DNA from: Oikopleura dioica
Taxonomy: Eukaryota > Animalia > Chordata
NCBI GenBank assembly: GCA_907165135.1
Contig: OU015569.1
Coordinates: 5,936,769-6,000,768, forward strand
Length of the DNA: 64,000 nucleotides
Direction of reading: 5' to 3'
The position numbers and the translations under genes are program-made. This document shows, in pieces, positions 11,130 through 62,528 of the stretch (its first letter is position 1; each line of letters starts with the position of its first letter). A model generated the notes under the pieces. That model worked only from the letters and a program-made list of their open reading frames with translations. It did no database searches and was not told the DNA's origin.

Positions 11130-13660
11130 TAGATTTATCTGTTTGCATATAGATCTAGACCATCCCAGAAGTCGCAAGTTTCAGTTTTGAATCCACTTTC
11201 GCTGCGCGTAACCAATCGTTCATTGTTAGGGGTGAGCTCGTTGTATCCAAAGTGCATATACGTATTTCCGTCATTGAAGCTCTTCCATTCTGGCAGATCT
11301 GGGTCAGAATCGTAAATATCCTAAAACTTGCGTTAGTCTGTTTCTTTCTACTCAACATTTTACTTGGATTATTTTCGGGTACCAAGCACCGCTTTGATCG
11401 TTAGGGTCGCCGTTTCGAACAAAATTTCCCCAATATCGATGCATGTATCTTTCCATGAGTTTGTATTCTTTGAATGGCATTGTTCCAAATGGGTTTCCAT
11501 CCGAATCGCACTGCATGAATTCACTATTTTCCGCATTGATCTAATATAATTATTTGTCGTCAAAGCATGTTCCCACAAGAAAGGACTTACATAAGTACAG
11601 TTCAGGCTTTCTTCAGCTTCGAATGTATATTGCAAGTCGGCAGCATGGCAGGAGACGATGTGGCACCTTTTAATGTCAGATCAAACATGAAGTATGGTGA
11701 AATGATGTACCTATCATAGGTTCTGAAACCACCATGTGGAAAATGGGCAAAGTCAATAGGCATTCCAGCACGGAAGTGATATGCGTACAGATTTTTGGCA
11801 TTGTGTTCTTTATAAAACTTGCGCAGTGGGCATGTGAAAACCCAGTCGGTTGCCGGCTCTTCAATGACATCACGATCATCATGTTTTGGGCCTTTTTGCA
11901 GACAGGGCTACACATACTCTTAGTGAAAATGTATTCGATATTGATTTACCGCGTCAGAGATGCCGTTGCAAACTCCTTCAATGAGAGATAGAGCAGGTGC
12001 GCCAGCAACACCCTCGCAAATGCCAAGAGCCCCACAGAGACTATCGATGCATTCCTTTGGATTAAAATCTGATGTTGTATTTCCCCATTTAGGATCATTC
12101 GGATCATAACCTGGTGTGTTACAGATTACGTCGTATCGATCCATAATCTTGTCAAATTTTTCTTGGTCATGAACAATAGCTCGAACTCCAGCAGTTGCCT
12201 CGGCACCGCTGATAGGACTTCCCCAAACAGATCTTACGTATATTTCCGTTTCGTGCTCCACGGACCCAGCCATGATATTGATGTTCTTGTTGTATTTTCC
12301 CTCGACGAGATCCCAAAAGGGCTGTCTGTGCATGATACTATTGTCAACCATGGGCAAAAACTTCATAGCAAGAGTAAAAAGTCGATCGGGATTGACTAAC
12401 TGTGGCATTTGGCGACGAACTCGCATCACAGCATCCTTATCTAGTGCACGAAGACATGCATTTCTATCTTCAGGTGATGTTATCTGATCATTGATGCAGC
12501 CAGCAGTGTCGGCGAATTGCCAAGCTTGCTTTTGTCCTTCCCAATTTTCTTTCATCGGGATCGCGAGGGGATTCGAATGTGATACAACACTATTTATCAT
12601 GTCACTTGAGTGAAGCAAGTGCAAGAGTGTGCTGACCCCGCCTGCTGATTGTCCAAAAATCATGATTTTTTCCGGGTCTCCTCCGAACGCATCAATGTGT
12701 TCCCTGACCCACCGAATCGACTCTTGCTGATCCAAGAATCCCCAATTAGCATTAGTAGTCTCACCCTCTTCTGTCTTCTCCAACGCCATGAAGCCAAAAG
12801 GACCAAGTCTGTAGTTGACGGTAACGACGACCATGTCCATCATTGGCGCCACAAATCTTGCATCGTAAAGTGGATTTCCTCCTGCTCCACCTGCAAAGGC
12901 TCCACCGTGGAACCAAATGGCCACAGGTATTTTACGCCCCTTTTCGAAAGATTCTTTTGAGACGAAAATGTTCAAGAAGAGACAGTCTTCTTTACTGATG
13001 GGAGCGTAGCTGCTATCACCTGTTAAAAGTTCAAAAATAGTTTAACGGAAAAATGAAAATGAATTACACCAATAAACTTAGAAAAATTTTTGAACCCAAC
13101 CTTGTGCACAAAACGGTGCGTAATACCTAGCATTGTGATATCCCCATGTCTTAATGGGGCGCGGGCTTTTCCATCTGTACTCACCCTCTGGCGGTAATGC
13201 GTATGGAATGCCTTTAAATACTATACTATAGTGCTCATTGTTCACAAGTCGTGCTGGATCGCCAAGACCAGGATCGTCGTCACCCTCTTCGAACCAGGTG
13301 TAACCACGAATGTAGCCCCCTTTTGTTAAAATGTCGACAGAGTTCTTCGTTGGCGGAGGAGTCGTTGGAGTTGGAGTCGTTGTTGTTGTTGGAGTAGTCG
13401 TTGTAGTTTGAGTCGTCGTTGAAATTGGCGACGTGGTTGTTGTGGTCTCATCTTTATCGCATGATTCTCTTGTCAAGCCGAATCCGAGACCAAAACCAAG
13501 GCCAGCTATCGTTGTTCCAATGCATAGACCAATGATAAGGTTCTTCCACTAAAACAATTATTATCTCTGCTTTTTTCGTACTTTTGTACTTTTTTCCAGA
13601 ATGATCCCATTTTAGCTCGTCGAGAACTTCTGCTCTTGGCGGACTGACAAAGTCTTTTTG
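11130..13660 (-). CDS. Type-B carboxylesterase / cholinesterase-family protein with an N-terminal transmembrane anchor and a Thr/Pro-rich mucin-like stalk, multi-exon (at least 6 exons).
   Basis: The 351-aa exon 11920-12975 contains WFHGGAFAGGAGG, the oxyanion/nucleophile elbow FGGDPEKIMIFGQSAGG, and DQQESIRWV. The N-terminal esterase exon 13078-13476 (GIPYALPPEGEYRWKSPRP...) is preceded by TTTTTSPISTTTQTTTTTPTTTTTPTPTTPPPT. The upstream exon after a ttttag acceptor at 13548 encodes the hydrophobic LIIGLCIGTTIAGLGFGLGFGL. C-terminal exons about 11700-11900 (NLYAYHFRAGMPIDFAHFPHGGF), 11390-11575 (MERYMHRYWGNFVRNGDPN) and 11130-11330 (CDFWDGL) match the esterase C-terminal consensus. Confidence 0.85.
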
Positions 13661-16980: not shown

Positions 16981-17410
16981 TTTAGGACGATAAAAATATA
17001 TTTCTTGAGAAATTACAAAATAGCGTGTTTTGACCCTTCTTGTTTCAAGCTTTTCGAGTACTATCAGTGCTCAACTATGCTTCATAATATACCAATAGAA
17101 AGCTTAGAGCCTCTTCTAGGGGGATTTGAATTCAAAAAGAGAAATAACGGACCCGAAAAATTATTTTGATACAACTTAGGTACTTAACTTTGACGGTGAT
17201 TAAAGGGTACTTCCGGCTTCATTTGTTAGTTACACAATTTATTTTCTTCTGTTTTCTATTCAAATCCCCCAACAAGAAGCTACAAGCTTTCTTTTGATAT
17301 ATTATGAAGCATAGTTGAGCACTGATAGTACTCGAAAAGCTTGAAACAAGAAGGGTCAAAACACGCTATTTTGTAATTTCTCAGAAAATATATTTTTATC
17401 GTCCTTAGAC
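16981..17410. repeat. Near-perfect long inverted repeat (hairpin/foldback). Arms are about 16981-17132 and 17252-17410 (about 150 bp, over 95% identical) around an about 120-bp spacer.
   Basis: Left arm tttaggacgataaaaatatatttcttgagaaattacaaaatagcgtgttttgacccttcttgtttcaagcttttcgagtactatcagtgctcaactatgcttcataatata... is the reverse complement of 17283-17410. The pairing extends to gggggatttgaat / attcaaatccccc. Confidence 0.85.
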
Positions 17411-18553: not shown

Positions 18554-20136
18554 CATAGGGCTTCCGTATAAAAAAACAAAATTTTAACTGGGCTGACCGA
18601 ATTGTTTGAAACTCGGGGAGGGAATGTATTTTTCAGTGGAGAAAAATTTTCATCATAAAAAAAAAATTTTTATCCACGCACGTGATTGTTAAAATGAGAA
18701 AACTGATTTTCTCGTCTCGTCCCTTGTCGATTTTTTTCATTTTTAGATATGTGAAAGGGCATAGTCAAAAACCTAGATTTCTTAAAAAAAATTTATTGCA
18801 TATGCAATAAAACATCTAAAATAAGATTTTATCTTGATATTAAGATTTTATTGTTTAAAAAAAGTCCTCCGGAGGACTTTTGCTGGAAGAAGCTTTTATG
18901 AAGAAGACATTGAAAAATTAAAAATAATTTAACAAATCAATCGAAAATAATAATGTATATTTATAAAAACATATCAACTCTACTAAAAACTATCATTCGG
19001 GCTGTTACTTCGGGCCGTTTCAGCCCCGTTCCATGATTTTTAAATTTAAGGGCTTGACGGCCCTTCGGGCCGTTTCAGCCCCGTTCCATGATTTTTAAAT
19101 TTAAGGGGCTTGACGGCCCTTCGGGCCGTTTCAGCCCCGTTCCATGATTTTTAAATTTAAGGGGCTTGACGGCCCTTCGGGCCGTTTCAACCCCGTTCCA
19201 TGATTTTTAAATTTAAGGGGCTTGACGGCCCTTCGGGCCGTTTCAGCCCCGTTCCATGATTTTTAAATTTAAGGGCTTGACGGCCCTTCGGGCCGTTTCA
19301 GCCCCGTTCCATGATTTTTAAATTTAAGGGGCTTGACGGCCCTTCGGGCCGTTTCAGCCCCGTTCCATGATTTTTAAATTTAAGGGCTTGACGGCCCTTC
19401 GGGCCGTTTCAGCCCCGTTCCATGATTTTTAAATTTAAGGGCTTGACGGCCCTTCGGGCCGTTTCAACCCCGTTCCATGATTTTTAAATTTAAGGGGCTT
19501 GACGGCCCTTCGGGCCGTTTCAGCCCCGTTCCATGATTTTTAAATTTAAGGGCTTGACGGCCCTTCGGGCCGTTTCAGCCCCGTTCCATGATTTTTAAAT
19601 TTAAGGGGCTTGACAAAGGCCTGGAACTCCGAGTTGATCAATCTCAGTTATGTCCCCAACCCCACCCACACCCATGATTATTAAAATTCAATTTGTCCTT
19701 GTTTATTTGCAAATTATGGTTTTTCCGTTAAATATTGAAATATTATATATTTTTGAAAAATTTAATTCTATGTCTTCTTCTAAAAAGTTTCTTCCAGCAA
19801 AAGTCCTCCGGAGGACTTTTTAACAATAACAAAGTTAATTTTTTACTAAAAATTACTATTTCTGATGATATAAATGGCCAGTCAAAATTTTTTTTATGAA
19901 ATATTATGTTTTTGATGTTTCTCTATAACATATCAAAAAATAAAAAAAATCCACAAGTGACAACGCACAAATGAAAAATCACCATTTTTATTTATATAAT
20001 TTTGATATAAAACATTATTTTCTTTTAATTCTTTTGCCCCTAAAAACTTTTTCTTATATTGATTTATCCCTCCCATAATTATTTAAGGAAACAATGAACG
20101 GAATCAGAAACAATTTTTTTATACGGAAGCCCTATG
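18554..20136. mobile_element. Composite non-autonomous foldback-type element with nested symmetry. It has perfect 23-bp outer TIRs, about 57-bp inner inverted repeats with a palindromic core, and a central 11x tandem satellite. There is no ORF.
   Basis: Outer TIR catagggcttccgtataaaaaaa (18554-18576) is the exact reverse complement of tttttttatacggaagccctatg (20114-20136). The inner arms 18851-18910 and 19770-19826 share the palindrome agtcctccggaggact. An AT-rich interior lacks any coding potential. Confidence 0.7.
19008..19615. repeat. Tandem satellite of 11 copies of a 55-56-bp unit, cttcgggccgtttcagccccgttccatgatttttaaatttaagggcttgacggcc. Each unit carries the hairpin acggccc-ttc-gggccgt.
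   Basis: Direct reading shows 11 head-to-tail copies with only point variants (cagcccc/caacccc; aaggg/aagggg). Confidence 0.95.
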
Positions 20137-30000: not shown

Positions 30001-33000
30001 CTGCCCAAGAAAGCCCCAAAGCGCCAGAAGCTGCCAAAGCCAAGCAAGCTCCCAAAAAGAAGAAAAATAACAAGAAATAGGAATCACGCAAAATGACCCA
30101 TTTTTGACATTTCTCCGCCAAAATTTTATTTCTCACGCAAAATGTTTTTCTTGCGCAAATCTTTACTTGAAGTTCCGAACACTGAAATAAACATGCAATT
30201 ATAGAAACGATAGTTCTGAAGGCTCCAATGCAAGCAAATCGACAGAGGAGAAGCTTGAAAAACTTCAAAAGAAGTACCAAATGGAGAAGAAGAGATCTGA
30301 AACGATGCATGACGAGTTCCGAATCTTGAACAGAAAGTATCAACAATCTAAAGATACTCTTGAACAATTCAAAGCAACGGAGCAAAAACTCAACGCGAAA
30401 CTCAAGGTACTTCGGGTCATGTTATTTTTTGACTCAGTTTCCATTCAGGGAGTTTTAGAAGAACAAGATAGGCGAATCGCGGAATCTGCGCAGAGCGAGC
30501 AAGAGAGTGCGACAATGATCAAAGATCTTCAAGAAAGAGTAGCGACATTAGAATGCGCTTCCGACGAAGAACTCAATGAGCGATACACTTCGCTCCAGAA
30601 ACGATATATTGAGTTGGAGTCGAAAGACTTGGACTACACGGAAACCATTGCCACACTGAACAACCAGTTAAACGAGCTGAAAAACGCTCATGAAACCGCG
30701 CTGAAAGAACTTGCGGCACAAGCAAGTAAAGACGAAGAAAGCTCAAATGACGACCATGAAGACTTGCGAATCGCGAAAGTGCACAATGAAGCAACCATCA
30801 AGTCCTTGGAAGCAAAGCTCGAGATTCTTCAAATGGAGAAGAGACGAACATCTACCGATGAAAACTCGAATAGCTCTGCAAATGTACGAGAGGATCAGTA
30901 TGAAAAGGACCTCGCAGAAGCTTTGCGCAAAGTTGATGATCTGTCCATCGAGGTAAAAGAAAAAAAAATGATTAAAAACTTACTCATTTTTAGCTTTTCA
31001 ACAAAAGTCAACAGCTCGATGAGGCCAAATATCAAATCGAGCAGCTAAAACTTTCCCCGGCGAATGAAACTGACAAGGCTGTCGCTGAATTACAACAGAA
31101 ACTTAACCATGTTGAAAAGCAAAAAGCCCAAATCGTTTTATCTGCTGTAAAGAACAGCGATAAATATGCTGCAGAAATCGAAGAATTGAAAGAGAAAATC
31201 TCCGAATTAGAAAAACAAGAGGAAGATCAAGGCAAAAATGTGTCGTCCGAATCCGCTCAGGCGATAGAAGAACTCAAGGAAAGCAACAAGCGATTGTATT
31301 CGGAGCTTGTGGCGTCTGAAACCAGTGAACAAACGCTGCGAAAGGAGATAGAAACTGCAAGAGCAAATGTGTCGAGACTCGAAGTACAGAACTCGACAGT
31401 GCTTGAAGAAGTGAGTCGGCTCAATGACACTCTTGCCGCAGCAGAAACTGAAATCAACAAAATGCGCGATGAAATTTACAGTTTCAAGGTATGATTAAAT
31501 CCATGTAAACTTCTCTGAAGCAAACACTCTCTTAGGACTCACACACTTTATCTTCAAGTGGATCTTCTATCAGCAGCTCACCAGAAGACTTATCAGCAAA
31601 ATACACTAAACTGACATGCATTTACAGAGCAAAACTTGAGGAAATTGTTAAACTAAGCAAAGAGCTCCAAAAGTACGTGCTATTCAATCATAAGTACTCG
31701 TCTATACCGTGATAAAACATTATGTTTTCAGGAAAGAATCTTTGGAGAACGATTTAAAAGTCGCCAACGAAACTATCAACAACAAGGATCAGAGCCTACA
31801 AGATATTCTCTCCAAAAATACAGCATTATCTTCCAAGGTTAAAGTCTTGGAAGAAGACTTAGAAGAAATGAAAAACGAGGTGGACAGAAAGGCGGACGCA
31901 ATAAAGAAAATGAAATCCGGCAAAAACGACAGACAGTGGTCCCAAATGCTGGCTAACAACGGCGTGCCTGAATCGGGTAGAGTTTCTCCTCAACACCATG
32001 TACAACATCACACTGACAACTTTTACGATGAAAACATCGAAAATGAATAAATTGCTGCAACAATCTTTTATGCATTGACGAATGTCTTCTATGATTTCGC
32101 AGTTGAAAGTGGTCAGTAGGAAGTTGAGCTGGTTATTTCGTGTGTCTAAATGAGTTTATAGACTTGTCCTCGTTTTCATCTGATGCTGAGGAGGACTTTG
32201 CAGTTTCGACTCCGAATGTCGCGATGCAGTTGAGAATCAAGGACGACACTATTCGAGAGTTGAGACAGCATCTTGAAGTGAGAACGGCCGAGTTTGAAGC
32301 CTTAGAAGCCAAACTAGCGGATATCAGTCTTAGGAACAGTGTTCAAAATTATCAGTAAACCCAAATTTTCGTAAATGGTAGAGGAGTATTGAATCTGAAT
32401 TAAGAATAAAAAATACATCGGAGGATGAAATTCGAGAGCAATTGTCCAAACTAATGGTGCAAATCAAAGAAGTACGAGATGATAATGATAGACTCGAGCA
32501 AGAAAATCTTGATCTAAAGGTTTAGTAAATTAAAGAAGTTTACAACTTATCTGAAATCAAGGAAGAGTGCAGCAAACTTATGGAAGAGCAGCTAGCCCAA
32601 CCCTCAAGTGTTGAATCAATCCAAAGACAATTAGATGATTTGACAGAGATTGTCGAGGTTTTTGATTTTTTAAATTTTTCATGAAAATATTCATAAGTCA
32701 AAAAATAACGACGAAGAAAAACTGAGGAAAGAATTGGAAGAATTGCGCGCCAGAATTCGAGAGTACGAGGACGCAGAAGAAGTTCGATCAAACTTATTCC
32801 ACGGGTCTCGTGGGAGCTCTCCGTTCTGGGTTCGCACAAAAAATTTAGTTTTAAAAAACGGCAGACAAAGACAATGCCTATCCATAAAAGCCTGACACAC
32901 TTGCCGACTCTTTGGCTGCATTAAACGACGAGAACCATTTCCTTCGAAGAAACCTGTCGAAGTCAGAGCTCGAAATCGAAGAACTAAAGGATCAACTCGA

Positions 33001-33355
33001 AGGAACGATCTCCTCAAGGTATCTTTTCGATAAAATCCATATGCTTTACCCTTTAAATGCATTACAAGAGTCTCTGCCGAAGAGTTCGAAAAACTAAAAT
33101 CTGAATGCCTTGAGCTTCGATACTACAATGATGACCTCGTCACTCAGCTAGCAAAGTTAGAAACTGGCCGGAGTACATCCGACTATGAAGATAAACTAAC
33201 AATTCAGCTAGAAATGATCAACCAAATGAATGAGGAGCTGGAAGTTTTAAAAGGTCGGCCTGCGAGTACTGTATATTCTTGAAAGCTTGTTTTAGATCAA
33301 TTGCACGAAAAAGATCGTAAACTTTCTATTCTACGACGCAGTGCCCGAAAGTAAC
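27011..33355 (+). CDS. Coiled-coil protein spanning about 6.3 kb of genomic sequence (golgin/myosin-tail-like heptad-rich), at least 20 exons. Identity is unassigned.
   Basis: It starts MPLEKTGSAKTVTGNVRTVRLNTYRERKFECQELEKENNQLSNTIVQ|gt. A chain of in-frame short exons encodes E/K/Q/L-rich heptads (e.g. 27840-27995, 28381-28560, 28970-29150, 29454-29575, 30281-30410, 30450-30950, 31186-31490, 31740-32050). A Pro-rich exon ...QAAPSTPPPPPSPEIFIDYDP lies at 27550-27596. The last exons are about 33100-33355. Confidence 0.7.
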
Positions 33356-33426
33356 ATGTTTGTAATAATTACAGTATAGTATATGAATTCCTTTAATCAA
33401 CAAATAAATTTGCGGCTGGTGACTAG

Positions 33427-34068
33427 GGAGGTTTGCAATTAGTCTGGGTACAGACCCAGACTTCGAGCTACAATTGCTAGTCTGGGTCCAGGGCCCAGAC
33501 TTGGTTATATTTTCGTAGTCTGGGTCTCTGGCCCAGAGAAGATCTTTTAACCCGTAGTCTGGGTCCAGGGGCTGGCTGGCGCCTAGTTTCACAAACTTTA
33601 TCAACCCGGTTCAAAATTTCGGGAGAATGGTTCATAATTTCGGTCAGAAAAGTGACTCGAATTGACTGAAGGCGCGGTTGCATAGAAAGTTTAACTTTTA
33701 AAAAAAAGAAAGTTTTAACTTGAGTTTCTCTTCGAAATCAGGCGCGGAGCGCATATTGACCCGTAATTTCTTACTTTGGAAAATTTTGGGAACCGGGTTC
33801 ACACAGATCATGAACTGTGTCCACCCGATCCAGGGCTGATGATCGCGTGAGTCAAAAGAAGGCTATAATGTGAGCACTGTGCCGAAATCCTAGTACAAAC
33901 TACCATCTGAAAGGCTATTTACGGCCCTGGACCCAGACTACGAGTGAAAAGAGCTTCTCTGGTCCCGAGACCCAGACTACGGAAATATAACCAATTCTGG
34001 CCCCTGGACCCAGACTAGCAATTCTTACTCGAAGTCTGGGTCTGTACCCAGACTAATTGCATACTTCC
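33427..34068. mobile_element. MITE-like non-autonomous element (642 bp) with about 140-bp terminal inverted repeats, flanked by a perfect 8-bp direct duplication GTGACTAG.
   Basis: Left arm ggaggtttgcaattagtctgggtacagacccagacttcgag... (33427-33580) is about 90% identical to the reverse complement of 33925-34068. Each arm holds 4 copies of the sub-motif tagtctgggtc. TSD copies are at 33419-33426 and 34069-34076. There is no ORF inside. Confidence 0.75.
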
Positions 34069-34584
34069 GTGACTAGTGTTCTTTGGATTAATTCTTGTCC
34101 TCATTGTTCACGCCGAGCGAAAATGTTAACCTGGCAAAGTATTGGACCCGCTCGTAACCCTGTCGGTATTGAATGGATCAAACGAGCAAATTCAATAAAT
34201 AAAGTGAATGAATGCAAAATGCCATTTATTTGGTTTCTCAAATTTTGTATCAGAAAAAGGCGGAGACATCAAAGAGAAAGCAGGACAAAATGTCCAAAAT
34301 GTAAAAGACACGAAGATAAAAAATATCTGAACGGGTTAATTTAGCGGGGCAGCAATGCCCGGGGAAGAAAATGGCTCACTTAATTTCGCAGATCTTAAAT
34401 TAACTGAGTAGGAGGAAAAGCTCCTCGACTACGAGAAAGTGGAGGCTGCAGTAATATTAAAATAGGGTCAGAAGAATAACTAGCTCATAGAATTGTCTAC
34501 GAGCGAGTTTCTTTAGTCTTAGGGTTAGAAGATCGAGAAGTCAAGTGCTTCACAATGGGCACTGGCATGAACTGCCGTTGCTCT

Positions 34585-35626
34585 TCATAAGCTCATGAAG
34601 ATTGTCTGTTCCTTATTCTCTAATGAGACTTCTTTGCGCACGCCTGAGGCGGTTTGCGATACGATCCGTCCTTGGTAGTGGACTTCGTTCTTGTAGTTGT
34701 GATAATTCGACGATTGGCAATTATTGAATTGCTTTGAGAGCGGCGGGTGTGGTCCGCTGACGGGCAAGGCCGGAAACGTCGAGTTCTCGTCGTAGTAGTT
34801 CATCTGGACGAGCGAAGCTGAGTTGGGCGCCAGCTGCGGCAGTTGAATCCCTTGCGAATGACAAAAGTGCTCCACTTGGTAGCGCAAATGGTCGAGCTGC
34901 TGTCTAAATGCGACTGATTATTTTCTGTCGCTTTATTTTTGTAACACTTTCCGTCTGGATTTGTTACAACAAGCGCTACTTTCAATTAAGCTGTGGCGCG
35001 GGATTATCCTAGCTCACTTAAAATCTCGGAATCCGTCAAAATCACAAAGCCTATTTGGCAACACTCACCTGAGTCTGTAATTTTCGTACTCAAGATCGTG
35101 GTTCTCGTGCTGCAAAACGTTCACCTCGTCTTCCAGAGTGCGCGTCTTGTCAAGTCTTCGTTGTCTGCAGCGTCTGGCTGCTTCTTTATTTCGCTCTCGG
35201 CGCAATTCGCGTTTCGCAAGTTCAATCTCAGACAATTCTGAGTCGGCCCTCCAAATTGATATCAGCATATAAAGCCAGATTTTATTTGTACCTTTTTGCT
35301 TTACGGCCAGGACGAGAATGTTTTTTCAACTTTCTGTTGTTTTGGATCTTAAGCTGAGCGCTTGGGTGTTGCTGTTTGTTCTCATTGGTGTCGGGGGTAT
35401 TCTTATAGTTTTCGAATGAAACGACATCTTTGGGTTGGGGCTGGGTGACTGATTGGGAAGGAGTGATGTACTGGTTGCTAGTAGCCGACAATGGGCTTGT
35501 GGAACCATTTGACTGCATGGAAAGCGTTGAAATAGCGGAGTCCGAAAAGGTGGAGTAAAAGCCAAAGCTGTTCATTTCTGGCGAGCTGGAACAAAACATC
35601 GAATCAGGCGAAAGGTTCTCTACCAT
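34585..35626 (-). CDS. bZIP transcription factor (Fos/ATF3-like basic region plus leucine zipper), 3 exons.
   Basis: Exon 1 (35626-35285) is Ser/Thr/Gln-rich. Exon 2 encodes ADSELSEIELAKRELRRERNKEAARRCRQRRLDKTRTLEDEVNVLQHENHDLEYENYRLR, i.e. the RRERNK.AA.RCR..R basic motif plus a heptad Leu zipper. It is reached through a 43-nt intron (gtacaaat...atttggag). Exon 3 (34925-34585) continues QLDHLRYQVEHF... Confidence 0.85.
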
Positions 35627-37444
35627 GGGTTCAAGATTTGTTGAAAACGAAAAAAAAGAAAAATAAAAGGAAAAACTACTTCCGTCAAAGTTATCTCCCA
35701 GAGGATATACTTGTCAAAACAGCCTTTGCTTACATATTCAAGTTAGGCTACCGTAATTATTCATTATTTTAATTAATTTATTCGGAACATCGGATTTTTT
35801 CCTAGATAATTTTTTCCGATAGAAAACAAAGAAGTATTGACAATCAAGTAAGTTTCGCAAATTTTTTTCAAGTGATATCTCTTTATAAAAGCTGACAACT
35901 CCGTAAAAATCTCTGAACCATTCCTCTGTTTTCAAGCGGTACGACGTCAGTGAATGGTGGACTACAGCTGCCCTCGGAGCATGGTGACGAGCTTGGCGTG
36001 GGGGCGCTGTTGGTGCTGCTTCTGTTGCTGCATGAGCTCGACAAACTTGAACACCTGAGCGAGTCTGCGTCATTTTCAGCGCTGGTGGAGCGATGGTCCG
36101 GCAATTGCATTCGTTTTGAACTCTCTTCTTTCGAAGCCCACAGGTTACCAATCAATTGATCGACCCTGGTTACTTTTCGATTGTATCCTACAAATTCTAG
36201 CGTTACTCAAAAGAACCACTTTGAATGAAAAATCGAGGAAAAACGACTCTTTTTATGAAGATTCTCCCTCTCTTCTACTGGTTTGACATAGAACGTGGGA
36301 ACATGGCAGAAATTATCTTTAGATTGGAAGATAAACCCTCGGCCGGTCTTTATGAAAAAAAATCTGATGGGTCGATAATAGTTCGTATTTTTTAAACGAA
36401 ATTGACGGATCAGCAAATTGTGAAAATTGCTTCACACGCAAGAGACAGAGGCGCTAATTTGCAAGCGTTTCCCGTTAATAATCCTATCGGAAGTCTTCTG
36501 GGCGCAAGAGTTGCAGGGTGCGAGTGGCGGCGCTTCGCTGATCCCTTTGGCGGAAGAGGCGAATCCCTTCAACTATTACTTACCGGTATCCATATTCCCA
36601 TACTCTTCAGCGTTGGAATCGTTGTTTGAATGGGTTTTGAGGCCACGTTCGACGCGCCGCCTTTAAATAGTGCGGCGGTGGTGGCGGTGCCGGACTCTGG
36701 ATTGAACTAGCGCCGCTCGAGCTGGCAACTATCACGTTGATCTGAAATTGGTAATTCTCTTCGACTTTACAGACTTTTGAGTAAAATACGAAGCCCTATT
36801 CATATACCTGTGTGCGCGGCGAGTCGAACGTTGTGGTGATTCCTTGGCGGATGAGGCCGCTTTTATGCGCAACGAGAAAGAGCTGGTGATTCCTCTAATC
36901 ACTGGGCCGACACTGAATTCTAACTCCTGGAGCACGGTGTATGATACCGATAGAGGTGCTTCATCGGACGCAGACGAGGTTGGCTGCAGCAACGCCAGCG
37001 AACACGCCAGGAACACGCGCATTGCGTCGGTGATTCAGGTAGAAAGCGAGCGAGGACGGGCCGCTGTTACGACCGACGATCTTCCGTAAACCAAACACCA
37101 CCACGCGTCCGAATTCCAAGTTTTGTCCACGCGTCGACCCTTAATTAGACGATCAGATGCCACTTAATGGATCGTCCGATGCGCGACGAGGCGCGTGCCG
37201 AAATCTATCCTTATTCCTAAGAAGCACATTACGTCGCAGTCTACATATTCCTCACTTTCCACTCCAAAACAAAAAGCCCAGTGAATAACCCAATAACAAA
37301 TCAAAAGACTAAATTATTGTTCAGTTTATTTCACAGCTTGTTTTACTTAGGAGTCGTCGTAGGACTGTGAAAGCATCAAAACAGAGGCACTTAGTATATG
37401 ATTAGTGTAGTTTTAGAACAGAGATTCCGCTGAGTTTCCTCTAT

Positions 37445-60469: not shown

Positions 60470-62528
60470 ACGGCTTCTTTGCATCACGTGCTGCTTTAAT
60501 TTCGGCCATTTTCGCTCTAAAATCGAATCAGCTGAAGGATTGCAACTGAGGTTCTTACCTAGCTTTTTGCTTAATCCTTTCTTTTTGTTTCCTGCCCGTG
60601 TTTTTAATTTCATTTTCTGGAGCTGTTCTGGTCGGGTGCTTCTTATCGTATCTGGCGAGTTCTTGAGCTTCGAACTTTGCCATTTGCTCAATCTCCTTTT
60701 TCACAAGCGCCGATGTCTATAAATCCAATTATGCATAAAAACAAGGCTTTCGCTCGAACCTTGAAAAGATGCCCCTGATTGGGGCCTAGAAGACGGCCGA
60801 CTCTTTCGAATTGGTCACCGTCCATGCCACTAAAAGAGTCTTCTGCATCTTCGTAAAAACGATTTTCAAGAGGAATTCCAAGACGGTTTAATATTTTTGA
60901 AGAAATCTGAGGAATAGCAGGTTGCAGAAGAATAGCAGAAACACGTAGAAGCTCATAACATGCATGAATAGCTTCAGTAAAAGAGTTTTAGATTCTGCTT
61001 TATCTAATAACTATGCTCTACCTGAATCTTTCTGCATGCGTTCACTTTTTATATCTCTATCCAATTTAAAAATCTTTTCGTTTGTCATGAATTGAAGTCC
61101 TTCTTCAACAGCTCGAATGACGCAGTTCATTGCACTTGGAAGCTGTCCTTGGTCGACAAATTTCGCGTACACTTCTGGCAACTCTTGAACAGTTTCGATG
61201 AGATATTTTTCGCCGTCGGGGCGATCTAACAGCGAGTCAGGGAAAAGAGTCGGATATGCTCCACTAGGGTTGAGATTCTTCGAAGTGGTTCTTGAGAGAA
61301 GATTCGCGATTTTATTTGCCAAGTCGCTATCAGACTGAATTCTGAGTAGCTCGTCCTGAAAGTCCACGTTCTTGAGGGTAGCATGTTTGAGACAGAACCA
61401 ACGAACAGCGTCACTTTGATTTCCGACTAATTCGAGCAGCTCCTTTGGAGTGACAAAGTTGTCCAGACTTTTGGACATTTTCATTCCATTTCGCGTCCAA
61501 TGACCATGAACGAAGACTTTCTTGGGCAGAGGAAGATCCGCAGCCAGAAGCATCGCTGGCCAATAAATACAGTGGAATCGAGCGATATCGATCCCGAGAA
61601 CTTGAAGTTGCGGCGGCCAGAAATCGAGAGCGTTTTCATGTCTTGCGTAGCCAGCTGCGGTCAAGTAGTTGATTAACGCCTCGAACCAAACGTACATTGT
61701 ATGATTTGGATCATCAGGAACAGCAACGCCCCATGGAACTCTCTTTCTCGGCCTAGAAATAGAAAGACTGGTGTTGCCAGTATTTCTTCGCTCCTTCAGC
61801 TCATCGATTAAAACTTTAGCAACATCTGGGGTAACAGCTTTTTCTATCCATGCTTCTATTTCGCTTAAAAATGGCTCAAAATCGAAGATATAGTTTTCTT
61901 CAGAAATCCATTCTAGTTGATGGCCGTTTACGCTACTAAAGTGTTTGCCGTCCTTTTCTACTATTTCTTTATTTCCGACAAATGATTCATCTGGTGTCGA
62001 ATACCATCCTTCGTAATTCTTAATTCTTATATGACCCTTCGATCTTAGCCGGCTCCACAGCTTCTGGGCGGCCTCGTGATGCTCAGGATTTGTCGTTCTC
62101 ATGTAAATTGCATCGTCGAGGGAGGCAACAGAAATGGAGAATTTTTTAAACGTTCTTCTATACAAGTCGGAGATGTTATTGACGAGCAGCTCTGGGTGAT
62201 CGTAGCCCTGTTGTGCAGCTGAGCGAATGATCTTTTGACCGTGTTCATCAGTCCCGATGGAGAATTTACTAGGGACATCGTTTATCTTATTCCAACGGTG
62301 GTAAAAGTCCCCAATTACACTAGAGTGAATATGACCAATGTGGGGAGTAGACGTCGCGTAATAAATGGGACAGGTAACAAAATTGGTCTGCTTGTTTAAT
62401 ATGCGTACGCCATGCGTTTTTCTCAGGTCACCACGAGAGGCGGAAGAAGTCTGCAATGATCCTAGATATCGATAGCTGAGTATTTGCGACTTCGGTCTGA
62501 GTCCGATCATGCTAAACAATCTAATCAT
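60470..62528 (-). CDS. MARS2: Methionyl-tRNA synthetase, organellar (mitochondrial) short type, about 3 exons.
   Basis: The 505-aa first exon begins with a presequence-like N-terminus (MIRLFSMIGLRPKSQILSYRYLGSLQTSSASRGDLRK). It carries the class-I HIGH motif (YYATSTPHIGHIHSS) and KMSKS. Downstream exons are about 60730-60900 (...IPQISSKILNRLGIPLENRFYEDAEDSF...) and about 60470-60700 (Lys-rich tail). Confidence 0.9.

Follow-up and report, generated by a model that had tools for sequence, protein, structure and literature searches.

The Merlin superfamily of transposons is defined by terminal inverted repeats (TIRs) of 24-462 bp, a conserved terminal 5'-GG that begins the elements of all families, and 8-9-bp duplications of the target site (TSDs; PMC8101967). 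The Repbase table in supplementary file 147 of the same survey includes the tunicate Merlin1_CI and its miniature inverted-repeat transposable element (MITE) Merlin1m_CI, with 155-bp TIRs, and in Caenorhabditis briggsae the non-autonomous Merlins carry tandem repeats within their TIRs that begin 9-14 nt from the tip (PMC8101967). Thus the TIR of MERLIN2_CB is 168 bp long and tandemly repeated over nt 9-143, that of MERLIN5_CB measures 135, and in MERLIN8_CB nt 14-122 hold 2.9 tandem copies of a repeat with period 38 (PMC8101967). Duplications of 8 bp are shared among superfamilies, being 8-9 bp in Merlin (PMC8101967) and 8-11 bp in Mutator-like elements (MULEs; PMC6446971), including 8-9 bp in those of Aedes (PMC5225508). 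Here we describe a 642-bp element with ends of comparable build, read directly at positions 33427-34068 of a 64,000-nt stretch of the Okinawa genome of the larvacean Oikopleura dioica (contig OU015569.1, positions 5,936,769 to 6,000,768; hereafter the window, with all coordinates counted from its first base). The O. dioica genome is among the most compact and transposon-poor in animals, and thousands of rearrangements separate its cryptic species.

An insertion present in Okinawa and absent from Bergen

The segment is flanked by the direct repeat GTGACTAG, and because the next base differs on each side, this repeat is exactly 8 bp long. At fixed positions, a match at 8 of 8 bases would arise by chance with a probability of 1.9e-5 given the base composition of the window. 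The orthologous locus in the Bergen genome (scaffold FN653079.1 of GCA_000209535.1; locus L086) was found via the reconstructed protein of the neighbouring bZIP gene, which is 74% identical to its orthologue P0121. BLASTN of the Okinawa region against this locus aligned window positions 32888-33244 and 33294-33424 on one side and 34118-35700 on the other, and only about 30 nt of Bergen sequence lies between the second and third of these matches. In the base-level alignment the Bergen site reads CAAATAAATTTGCGGCTC-TTGACTCG-TTTTGCTAAATTC, with the longer right flank TTTTGCTAAATTCGCG, and the filled Okinawa site reads CAAATAAATTTGCGGCTG-GTGACTAG-(642 bp)-GTGACTAG-TGTTCTTTGGATT, with the longer right flank TGTTCTTTGGATTAATTC. 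Bergen therefore has one 8-mer, TTGACTCG, identical to GTGACTAG at six of eight positions, and lacks the element altogether. The Bergen locus is a true empty site, and because it holds a single 8-mer and no element, the Okinawa segment is an insertion that duplicated exactly 8 bp.

These results bear out the preliminary description of the segment, made from the Okinawa sequence, as a MITE with a perfect 8-bp TSD; the empty site that it proposed to look for in other strains or relatives exists in Bergen O. dioica, with the 8-mer once and no insertion. TIRs, an adjoining TSD, an empty site in a relative and a small size with no transposase gene are all found together here. We are thus close to certain that the element belongs, as a MITE, to the non-autonomous TIR transposons of class II (cut-and-paste) and that it inserted in the Okinawa lineage after its split from the Bergen lineage. 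On this account the target strands were cut 8 bp apart, and repair of the gaps then duplicated the 8-mer GTGACTAG. One point tempers this history: the polarity of the event, gain in Okinawa as opposed to loss in Bergen, follows from TSD logic applied to two lineages with no outgroup. An attempt to supply one from metagenomic contigs with bZIP homologues (L089 and L090, about 54% bZIP identity) yielded sequences too divergent for DNA-level alignment.

Long arms built from spaced tandem units

The two arms (Table 1) were recovered by an inverted-repeat search as the dominant inverted repeat of the region. They are 91% complementary, align to each other free of gaps with 13 mismatches (arm-versus-arm BLAST E = 9e-54) and are separated by 354 nt, in good agreement with the preliminary description of TIRs of about 140 bp and about 90% identity. 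Each arm opens with a 13-nt tip that begins with GG at both ends of the element (GGAGG and GGAAG), and the remainder is tandemly organized, with Tandem Repeats Finder reporting a period of 38 and 2.6 copies from nt 14 onward. Every tandem unit opens with TAGTCTGGGT(C/A). For the first three units of the left arm, the opening motif forms one half, the leading one, of a palindrome that is imperfect, exemplified by AGTCTGGGT-ACAG-ACCCAGACT in unit 1, where the two halves are parted by an N4 spacer.

The arms had earlier been described as built from four copies each of the 11-mer TAGTCTGGGTC. That count stands if an imperfect copy is included and falls to three if it is not: each arm has three exact copies and one with a single mismatch (TAGTCTGGGTA), spaced at 38/38/39 nt. 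When up to one mismatch is allowed, the 11-mer matches 12 times in the whole window, against 0.41 expected, and 10 of these 12 matches are inside the element. None of the 13 arm-to-arm mismatches falls within the 44 motif positions (p = 0.007), the pattern to be expected if functional constraint on the ends acts on these motifs. The motifs of the tandem units are accordingly candidate transposase-binding sites.

No open reading frame (ORF) of the element exceeds 92 residues and none has a Pfam match. The central region holds short ORFs only, and its earlier description as lacking an ORF was correct in that sense.

Table 1. Coordinates of the element, its target-site duplication and the flanking polyadenylation signals in the window
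Feature	Position	Strand	Basis or detail
AATAAA of coiled-coil gene	33403..33408	+	kept in Bergen as CAAATAAATTTGCGGCT
Left 8-bp TSD copy, GTGACTAG	33419..33426		direct repeat adjoining arm; Bergen single copy TTGACTCG at aligned position
Left terminal inverted repeat, 144 nt	33427..33570	+	inverted-repeat search, BLAST, gap-free alignment
13-nt terminal motif, GGAGGTTTGCAAT	33427..33439	+	right-end counterpart, reverse complement: GGAAGTATGCAAT
Left-arm tandem sub-repeats	33440..33570	+	units from 33440, 33478, 33516 and 33555; spacing 38/38/39 nt
Central non-coding region, 354 bp, 43% GC	33571..33924		weak inner inverted repeat 33588-33612 / 33790-33814
Right terminal inverted repeat, 144 nt; 13-nt tip and four units as on the left	33925..34068	-	motif starts at arm positions 14, 52, 90 and 129, as in the left arm
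Right 8-bp TSD copy, GTGACTAG	34069..34076		direct repeat adjoining arm
AATAAA of bZIP gene	34225..34230	-	about 150 nt from right end of element

End anatomy favours a Merlin-type transposase

A non-autonomous element of this kind would depend on a transposase supplied in trans. By analogy with described families, the most likely source is the Merlin superfamily (IS1595/IS1016-related DDE transposases) and not hAT, a view that we hold at about even confidence. In weighing the superfamilies we balanced prior abundance against the likelihood of the observed anatomy under each, which left Merlin with an even chance, MULEs with a low one, hAT with one slightly lower and all others with a small remainder. 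The Merlin features that we tested are all present, namely an 8-bp TSD, GG at both ends and a 144-nt TIR with internal tandem repeats. The likeness to non-autonomous Merlins extends to dimensions, with a TSD of 8 bp set beside the 8-9 bp of Merlin, a TIR of 144 nt beside those of 155, 168 and 135, and a total length of about 600 bp. It is closest for MERLIN8_CB, in which the tandem repeat also runs from nt 14 with a period of 38, in 2.9 copies as compared with 2.6 here. Merlin is, moreover, a group present in tunicates (PMC8101967). A difference is that the units described here each open with a palindrome, a trait that the Repbase table does not describe, and the likeness as a whole is one of description and not of sequence comparison.

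If a Merlin-type enzyme is responsible, a DDE transposase acting in trans would recognise the 13-nt tips, which begin with GG, as the places to cut, and the same transposase would bind the four spaced TAGTCTGGGT(C) half-palindromes of each arm as accessory sites.

Several observations weigh against this assignment. No transposase of any superfamily has been linked to the ends of the element. We know of no DDE_Tnp_IS1595 transposase from Oikopleura, and the supplement of the Merlin survey lists Ciona and Boltenia and no Oikopleura protein (PMC8101967). A family of copies was not observed, the element being present once in the 64-kb window, and 55 kb of Bergen DNA (L086-L088) contained no relative and no AGTCTGGGT motif. 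Long TIRs made of tandem repeats and flanked by 8-9-bp TSDs are equally typical of the MULEs of Aedes (PMC5225508). The TSD is also of exactly the length made by hAT transposases, and it fits the nTnnnnAn target pattern of the Ac clade, with T at position 2 and A at position 7 (PMC10368747, PMC8961557). Finally, a canonical hAT-type element at 18556-20134 in this same window is evidence of hAT activity in the genome.

A reading that we regard as possible, and advance only tentatively, is that the element represents a Merlin-type (IS1595-related) family active in O. dioica after the split of the Okinawa and Bergen cryptic species. The superfamily would then be new to larvaceans, given the lack of an Oikopleura protein in the Merlin survey, and such a family could explain part of the unclassified repeats of the Okinawa genome. 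Its copies would serve as dated markers of the extreme scrambling of the genome between these lineages, and possibly as substrates for its breakpoints.

Alternative origins of the element

The best surviving alternative, which we consider unlikely, is that the element is a non-autonomous MULE of the 'type 2 foldback' kind, whose transposase would bind tandem repeats within the TIR. MULEs typically have TIRs of more than 100 bp and TSDs of 8-10 bp, and the features expected of them are present here as an 8-bp TSD, at the lower bound of the 8-11-bp range, a 144-nt TIR and tandem units (PMC5225508, PMC6446971). In Aedes aegypti, TSDs are 8-9 bp in all 14 of 14 families and TIRs exceed 100 bp in 12 of the 14, mostly with subterminal tandem repeats (PMC5225508). 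The present anatomy is of the same order: in Muta1, a member of the type 2 foldback class, the 145-bp TIRs consist of a terminal motif followed by nine tandem repeats, and Muta1 and Muta5 have TIRs of 145-151 bp, a short terminal motif, regularly spaced subterminal repeats and TSDs of 8-9 bp, with short derivatives, alike in nothing but the TIRs, that number in the hundreds (PMC5225508). The Spectre MULE, with 74-bp TIRs, likewise has an 8-bp TSD (PMC6446971). Set against these parallels, the usual TSD of a MULE is 9-10 bp, and the 38-nt period of the units exceeds the 9-15-bp repeats of Aedes MULEs; in Muta1 and Muta5 the repeats are of 12-15 bp with 3-4-bp spacers. Their host is an insect, whereas MULEs are nearly absent from chordates, with one sequence reported, from Ciona savignyi (PMC6446971).

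A hAT origin, which the preliminary description had proposed from what it called a hAT-like signature, is in our estimate improbable, and the hAT label is probably wrong. Under this alternative, a hAT transposase would have cut the target with a stagger of 8 bp, and a BED-type domain in it would bind the repeated subterminal motifs. The use of subterminal repeats, some of them quasi-palindromic, is indeed documented for hAT transposases (PMC10368747). The element shares with hAT MITEs, whether the one at 18556-20134 or those with Hermes/Ac ends, an 8-bp TSD, an nTnnnnAn target and repeated subterminal motifs of the sort that act as accessory transposase sites. The target match, which comes from a single site, would nevertheless arise by chance in about 9% of cases. 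The TIRs of hAT elements are 10-25 bp long (PMC8961557), and they start with TAG or CAG, whereas those described here are 144 nt long and start with GG.

The terminal consensus of hAT elements is (T/C)A(A/G)NG, of the TAG/CAG type, and the YARNG form is reportedly owed to the work of Rubin and colleagues in 2001 and of Yuan and Wessler in 2011. Neither GGAGG nor GGAAG has the A at position 2 of this consensus. Since both TIR length and termini depart from hAT traits, the hAT-like signature is not established, and an 8-bp TSD is no exclusive hallmark of hAT either, being found also in Merlin, MULEs and P elements. Moving the left boundary 3 nt outward, which would give TAGGG, was considered and rejected: nothing symmetric to it exists at the right end, and the flanking duplication is lost.

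The hAT-type element itself is 1579 bp long (18556-20134) and non-autonomous, with TAGGG termini, a perfect 21-bp TIR (TAGGGCTTCCGTATAAAAAAA) and a perfect 8-bp TSD (TGCATTCA at 18548-55 and 20135-42). Inside it, a 55-56-bp minisatellite is repeated about 11 times (19008-19614), and there is also an inner inverted repeat of 107 nt. Lying 13 kb away, it has no end sequence in common with the 642-bp element, and it shows how unlike the ends of that element a real hAT end looks.

Other superfamilies together are a slight possibility. P elements have an 8-bp TSD and 31-bp TIRs starting with CATGATG; the TSD length fits, but neither the termini nor the TIR length does. The Foldback (FB) elements of Drosophila resemble the present element, as they are generally described, in having long inverted arms of tandem sub-repeats and little or no coding capacity, and they differ in having 9-bp TSDs and arms that are much longer and of variable length.

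That the segment is no transposon at all is very improbable. A local inverted duplication, a fold-back assembly artefact or an ancient hairpin-RNA or miRNA gene might be suggested by the highly stable hairpin into which it folds (-345 kcal/mol, z = -30), by weak miRNA-like Rfam matches below threshold (E = 0.14-0.63, about 20 bits as against the 70-77 needed) and by the Nanopore basis of the assembly (PMC8008620). In Rfam searches at gathering and E-value thresholds, however, no family attained its threshold, and a fold-back artefact would lack the unique 354-bp centre, the 9% divergence of the arms and the TSD. These origins are ruled out by the precise 8-bp duplication around the arms together with the clean empty site, with its single 8-mer, in the sister lineage.

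The window contains a second long-armed MITE of 418 bp at 16986-17403. Its arms of about 152 nt are 93% complementary, its termini read GGACG...CGTCC, and it is bordered on both sides by TTA (window 16983-17406), the TWA duplication of 3 bp seen with PIF/Harbinger (Tourist-like) elements. As this MITE is also long-armed, long TIRs occur in more than one MITE family of this genome.

Relatives and host function

Beyond the window, a protein-database search with the 92-residue ORF that spans the left arm returned no match. The pattern of three units (AGTCTGGGT followed by N27-32, three times) occurred at 85 metagenome, 15 prokaryote and no viral loci, none of them element-like by BLAST, and the 85 metagenome and 15 prokaryote loci are unrelated tandem repeats. 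The element is not described in the literature consulted, the papers on the Okinawa and multi-lineage O. dioica genomes included. For the Okinawa genome, MITE-Hunter and RepeatModeler libraries were built, and 44% of the predicted repeats were left unclassified (PMC8008620). The element is probably masked in the repeat tracks of those authors, though uncharacterised. Assigning it to the correct family, be it Merlin, MULE or hAT, would help to classify this large fraction of the Okinawa repeats.

The suggestion that the element could contribute a terminator or small-RNA function to its neighbours found no support. Neither strand of the element contains AATAAA or ATTAAA, the polyadenylation signals of both neighbouring genes lie outside it and are conserved in Bergen, and an Rfam search of the segment gave a best score of 21 bits against the 77 needed, with no family near threshold. 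With no gene, no polyadenylation signal and no known RNA family in it, the element has no demonstrated host function. Transcripts that read through from either neighbour would contain a hairpin of great stability, its stem about 144 bp long, and that such transcripts might feed an RNA interference pathway is speculation.

The stakes are correspondingly modest: this is a real but ordinary transposon copy, and nothing points to a host function for it. Dated lineage-specific insertions such as this one do show cut-and-paste activity since the lineages split, and here the insertion landed about 10 nt from a polyadenylation signal between convergent genes.

Genomic setting and neighbouring genes

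On the - strand, an ORF of 505 residues (61011-62528) matches Oidioi.mRNA.OKI2018_I69.XSR.g15001, a model of the mitochondrial methionyl-tRNA synthetase, with 100% identity; this match to an XSR model therefore places the window in the X-specific region of the Okinawa assembly OKI2018_I69. The position first reported for the element, between the convergent 3' ends of a coiled-coil gene and a bZIP gene, is correct. The coiled-coil gene is a multi-exon gene on the + strand that ends just left of the element, its TAA stop at 33352-33354 being placed by Bergen homology, and the bZIP gene lies on the - strand with its stop at 34585-34587. The target was the spacer between the polyadenylation signals of the two genes, originally about 180 bp long, and the target 8-mer starts 10 nt past the end of the coiled-coil AATAAA. 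In the Bergen locus the bZIP gene is likewise convergent with a gene of 1177 residues.

The genes for bZIP, coiled-coil protein, methionyl-tRNA synthetase, Serinc and Arp2/3 p34 are represented by ORFs in the Okinawa window, and all five are also found as annotated genes on the single 219-kb Bergen scaffold FN653079.1. The stretch is therefore syntenic at least in part, even though the genome is reported to be scrambled between the lineages.

Bergen homology also indicates that the reading frame of the coiled-coil gene ends in ...MNEELEVLK/DQLHEKDRKLSILRRSARK*, after a 42-nt GT-AG intron at 33254-33295. This 42-nt segment of the last coding part is absent from the Bergen orthologue, where the frame is continuous (...EELEELKDQLHVKDRQLSILRKSGRK*), and it probably represents a lineage-specific intron gain or loss. 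If it were left unspliced, the Okinawa coiled-coil protein would stop early at TGA 33280-33282.

To the right of the element, a block of about 114 nt (34168-34281) has only one difference between Okinawa and Bergen, as compared with about 71-80% identity in the neighbouring coding sequence. It contains AATAAATAAA (+ strand, 34194-34203) as well as the AATAAA of the bZIP gene (- strand, 34225-34230), and it may be a bidirectional polyadenylation and 3'-untranslated-region module shared by the convergent pair. The block has no Rfam match and no significant fold, and nothing similar to it turned up in L089 and L090, the more distant metagenomic contigs.

Two observations concern the annotation of these genes. 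For the bZIP gene (34585-35626, - strand) the protein database holds no 100% match, the best being the Bergen orthologue at 74%, and the Okinawa model of the methionyl-tRNA synthetase is present there; the bZIP gene may thus be missing from the OKI2018_I69 annotation or be modelled differently in it. On the Bergen side, the model of the 1177-residue gene ends at position 11971 of locus L086, and coding similarity to the Okinawa coiled-coil gene runs on to about 11545, where there is an in-frame TAG, so that one or more exons are probably missing from the end of the Bergen model.

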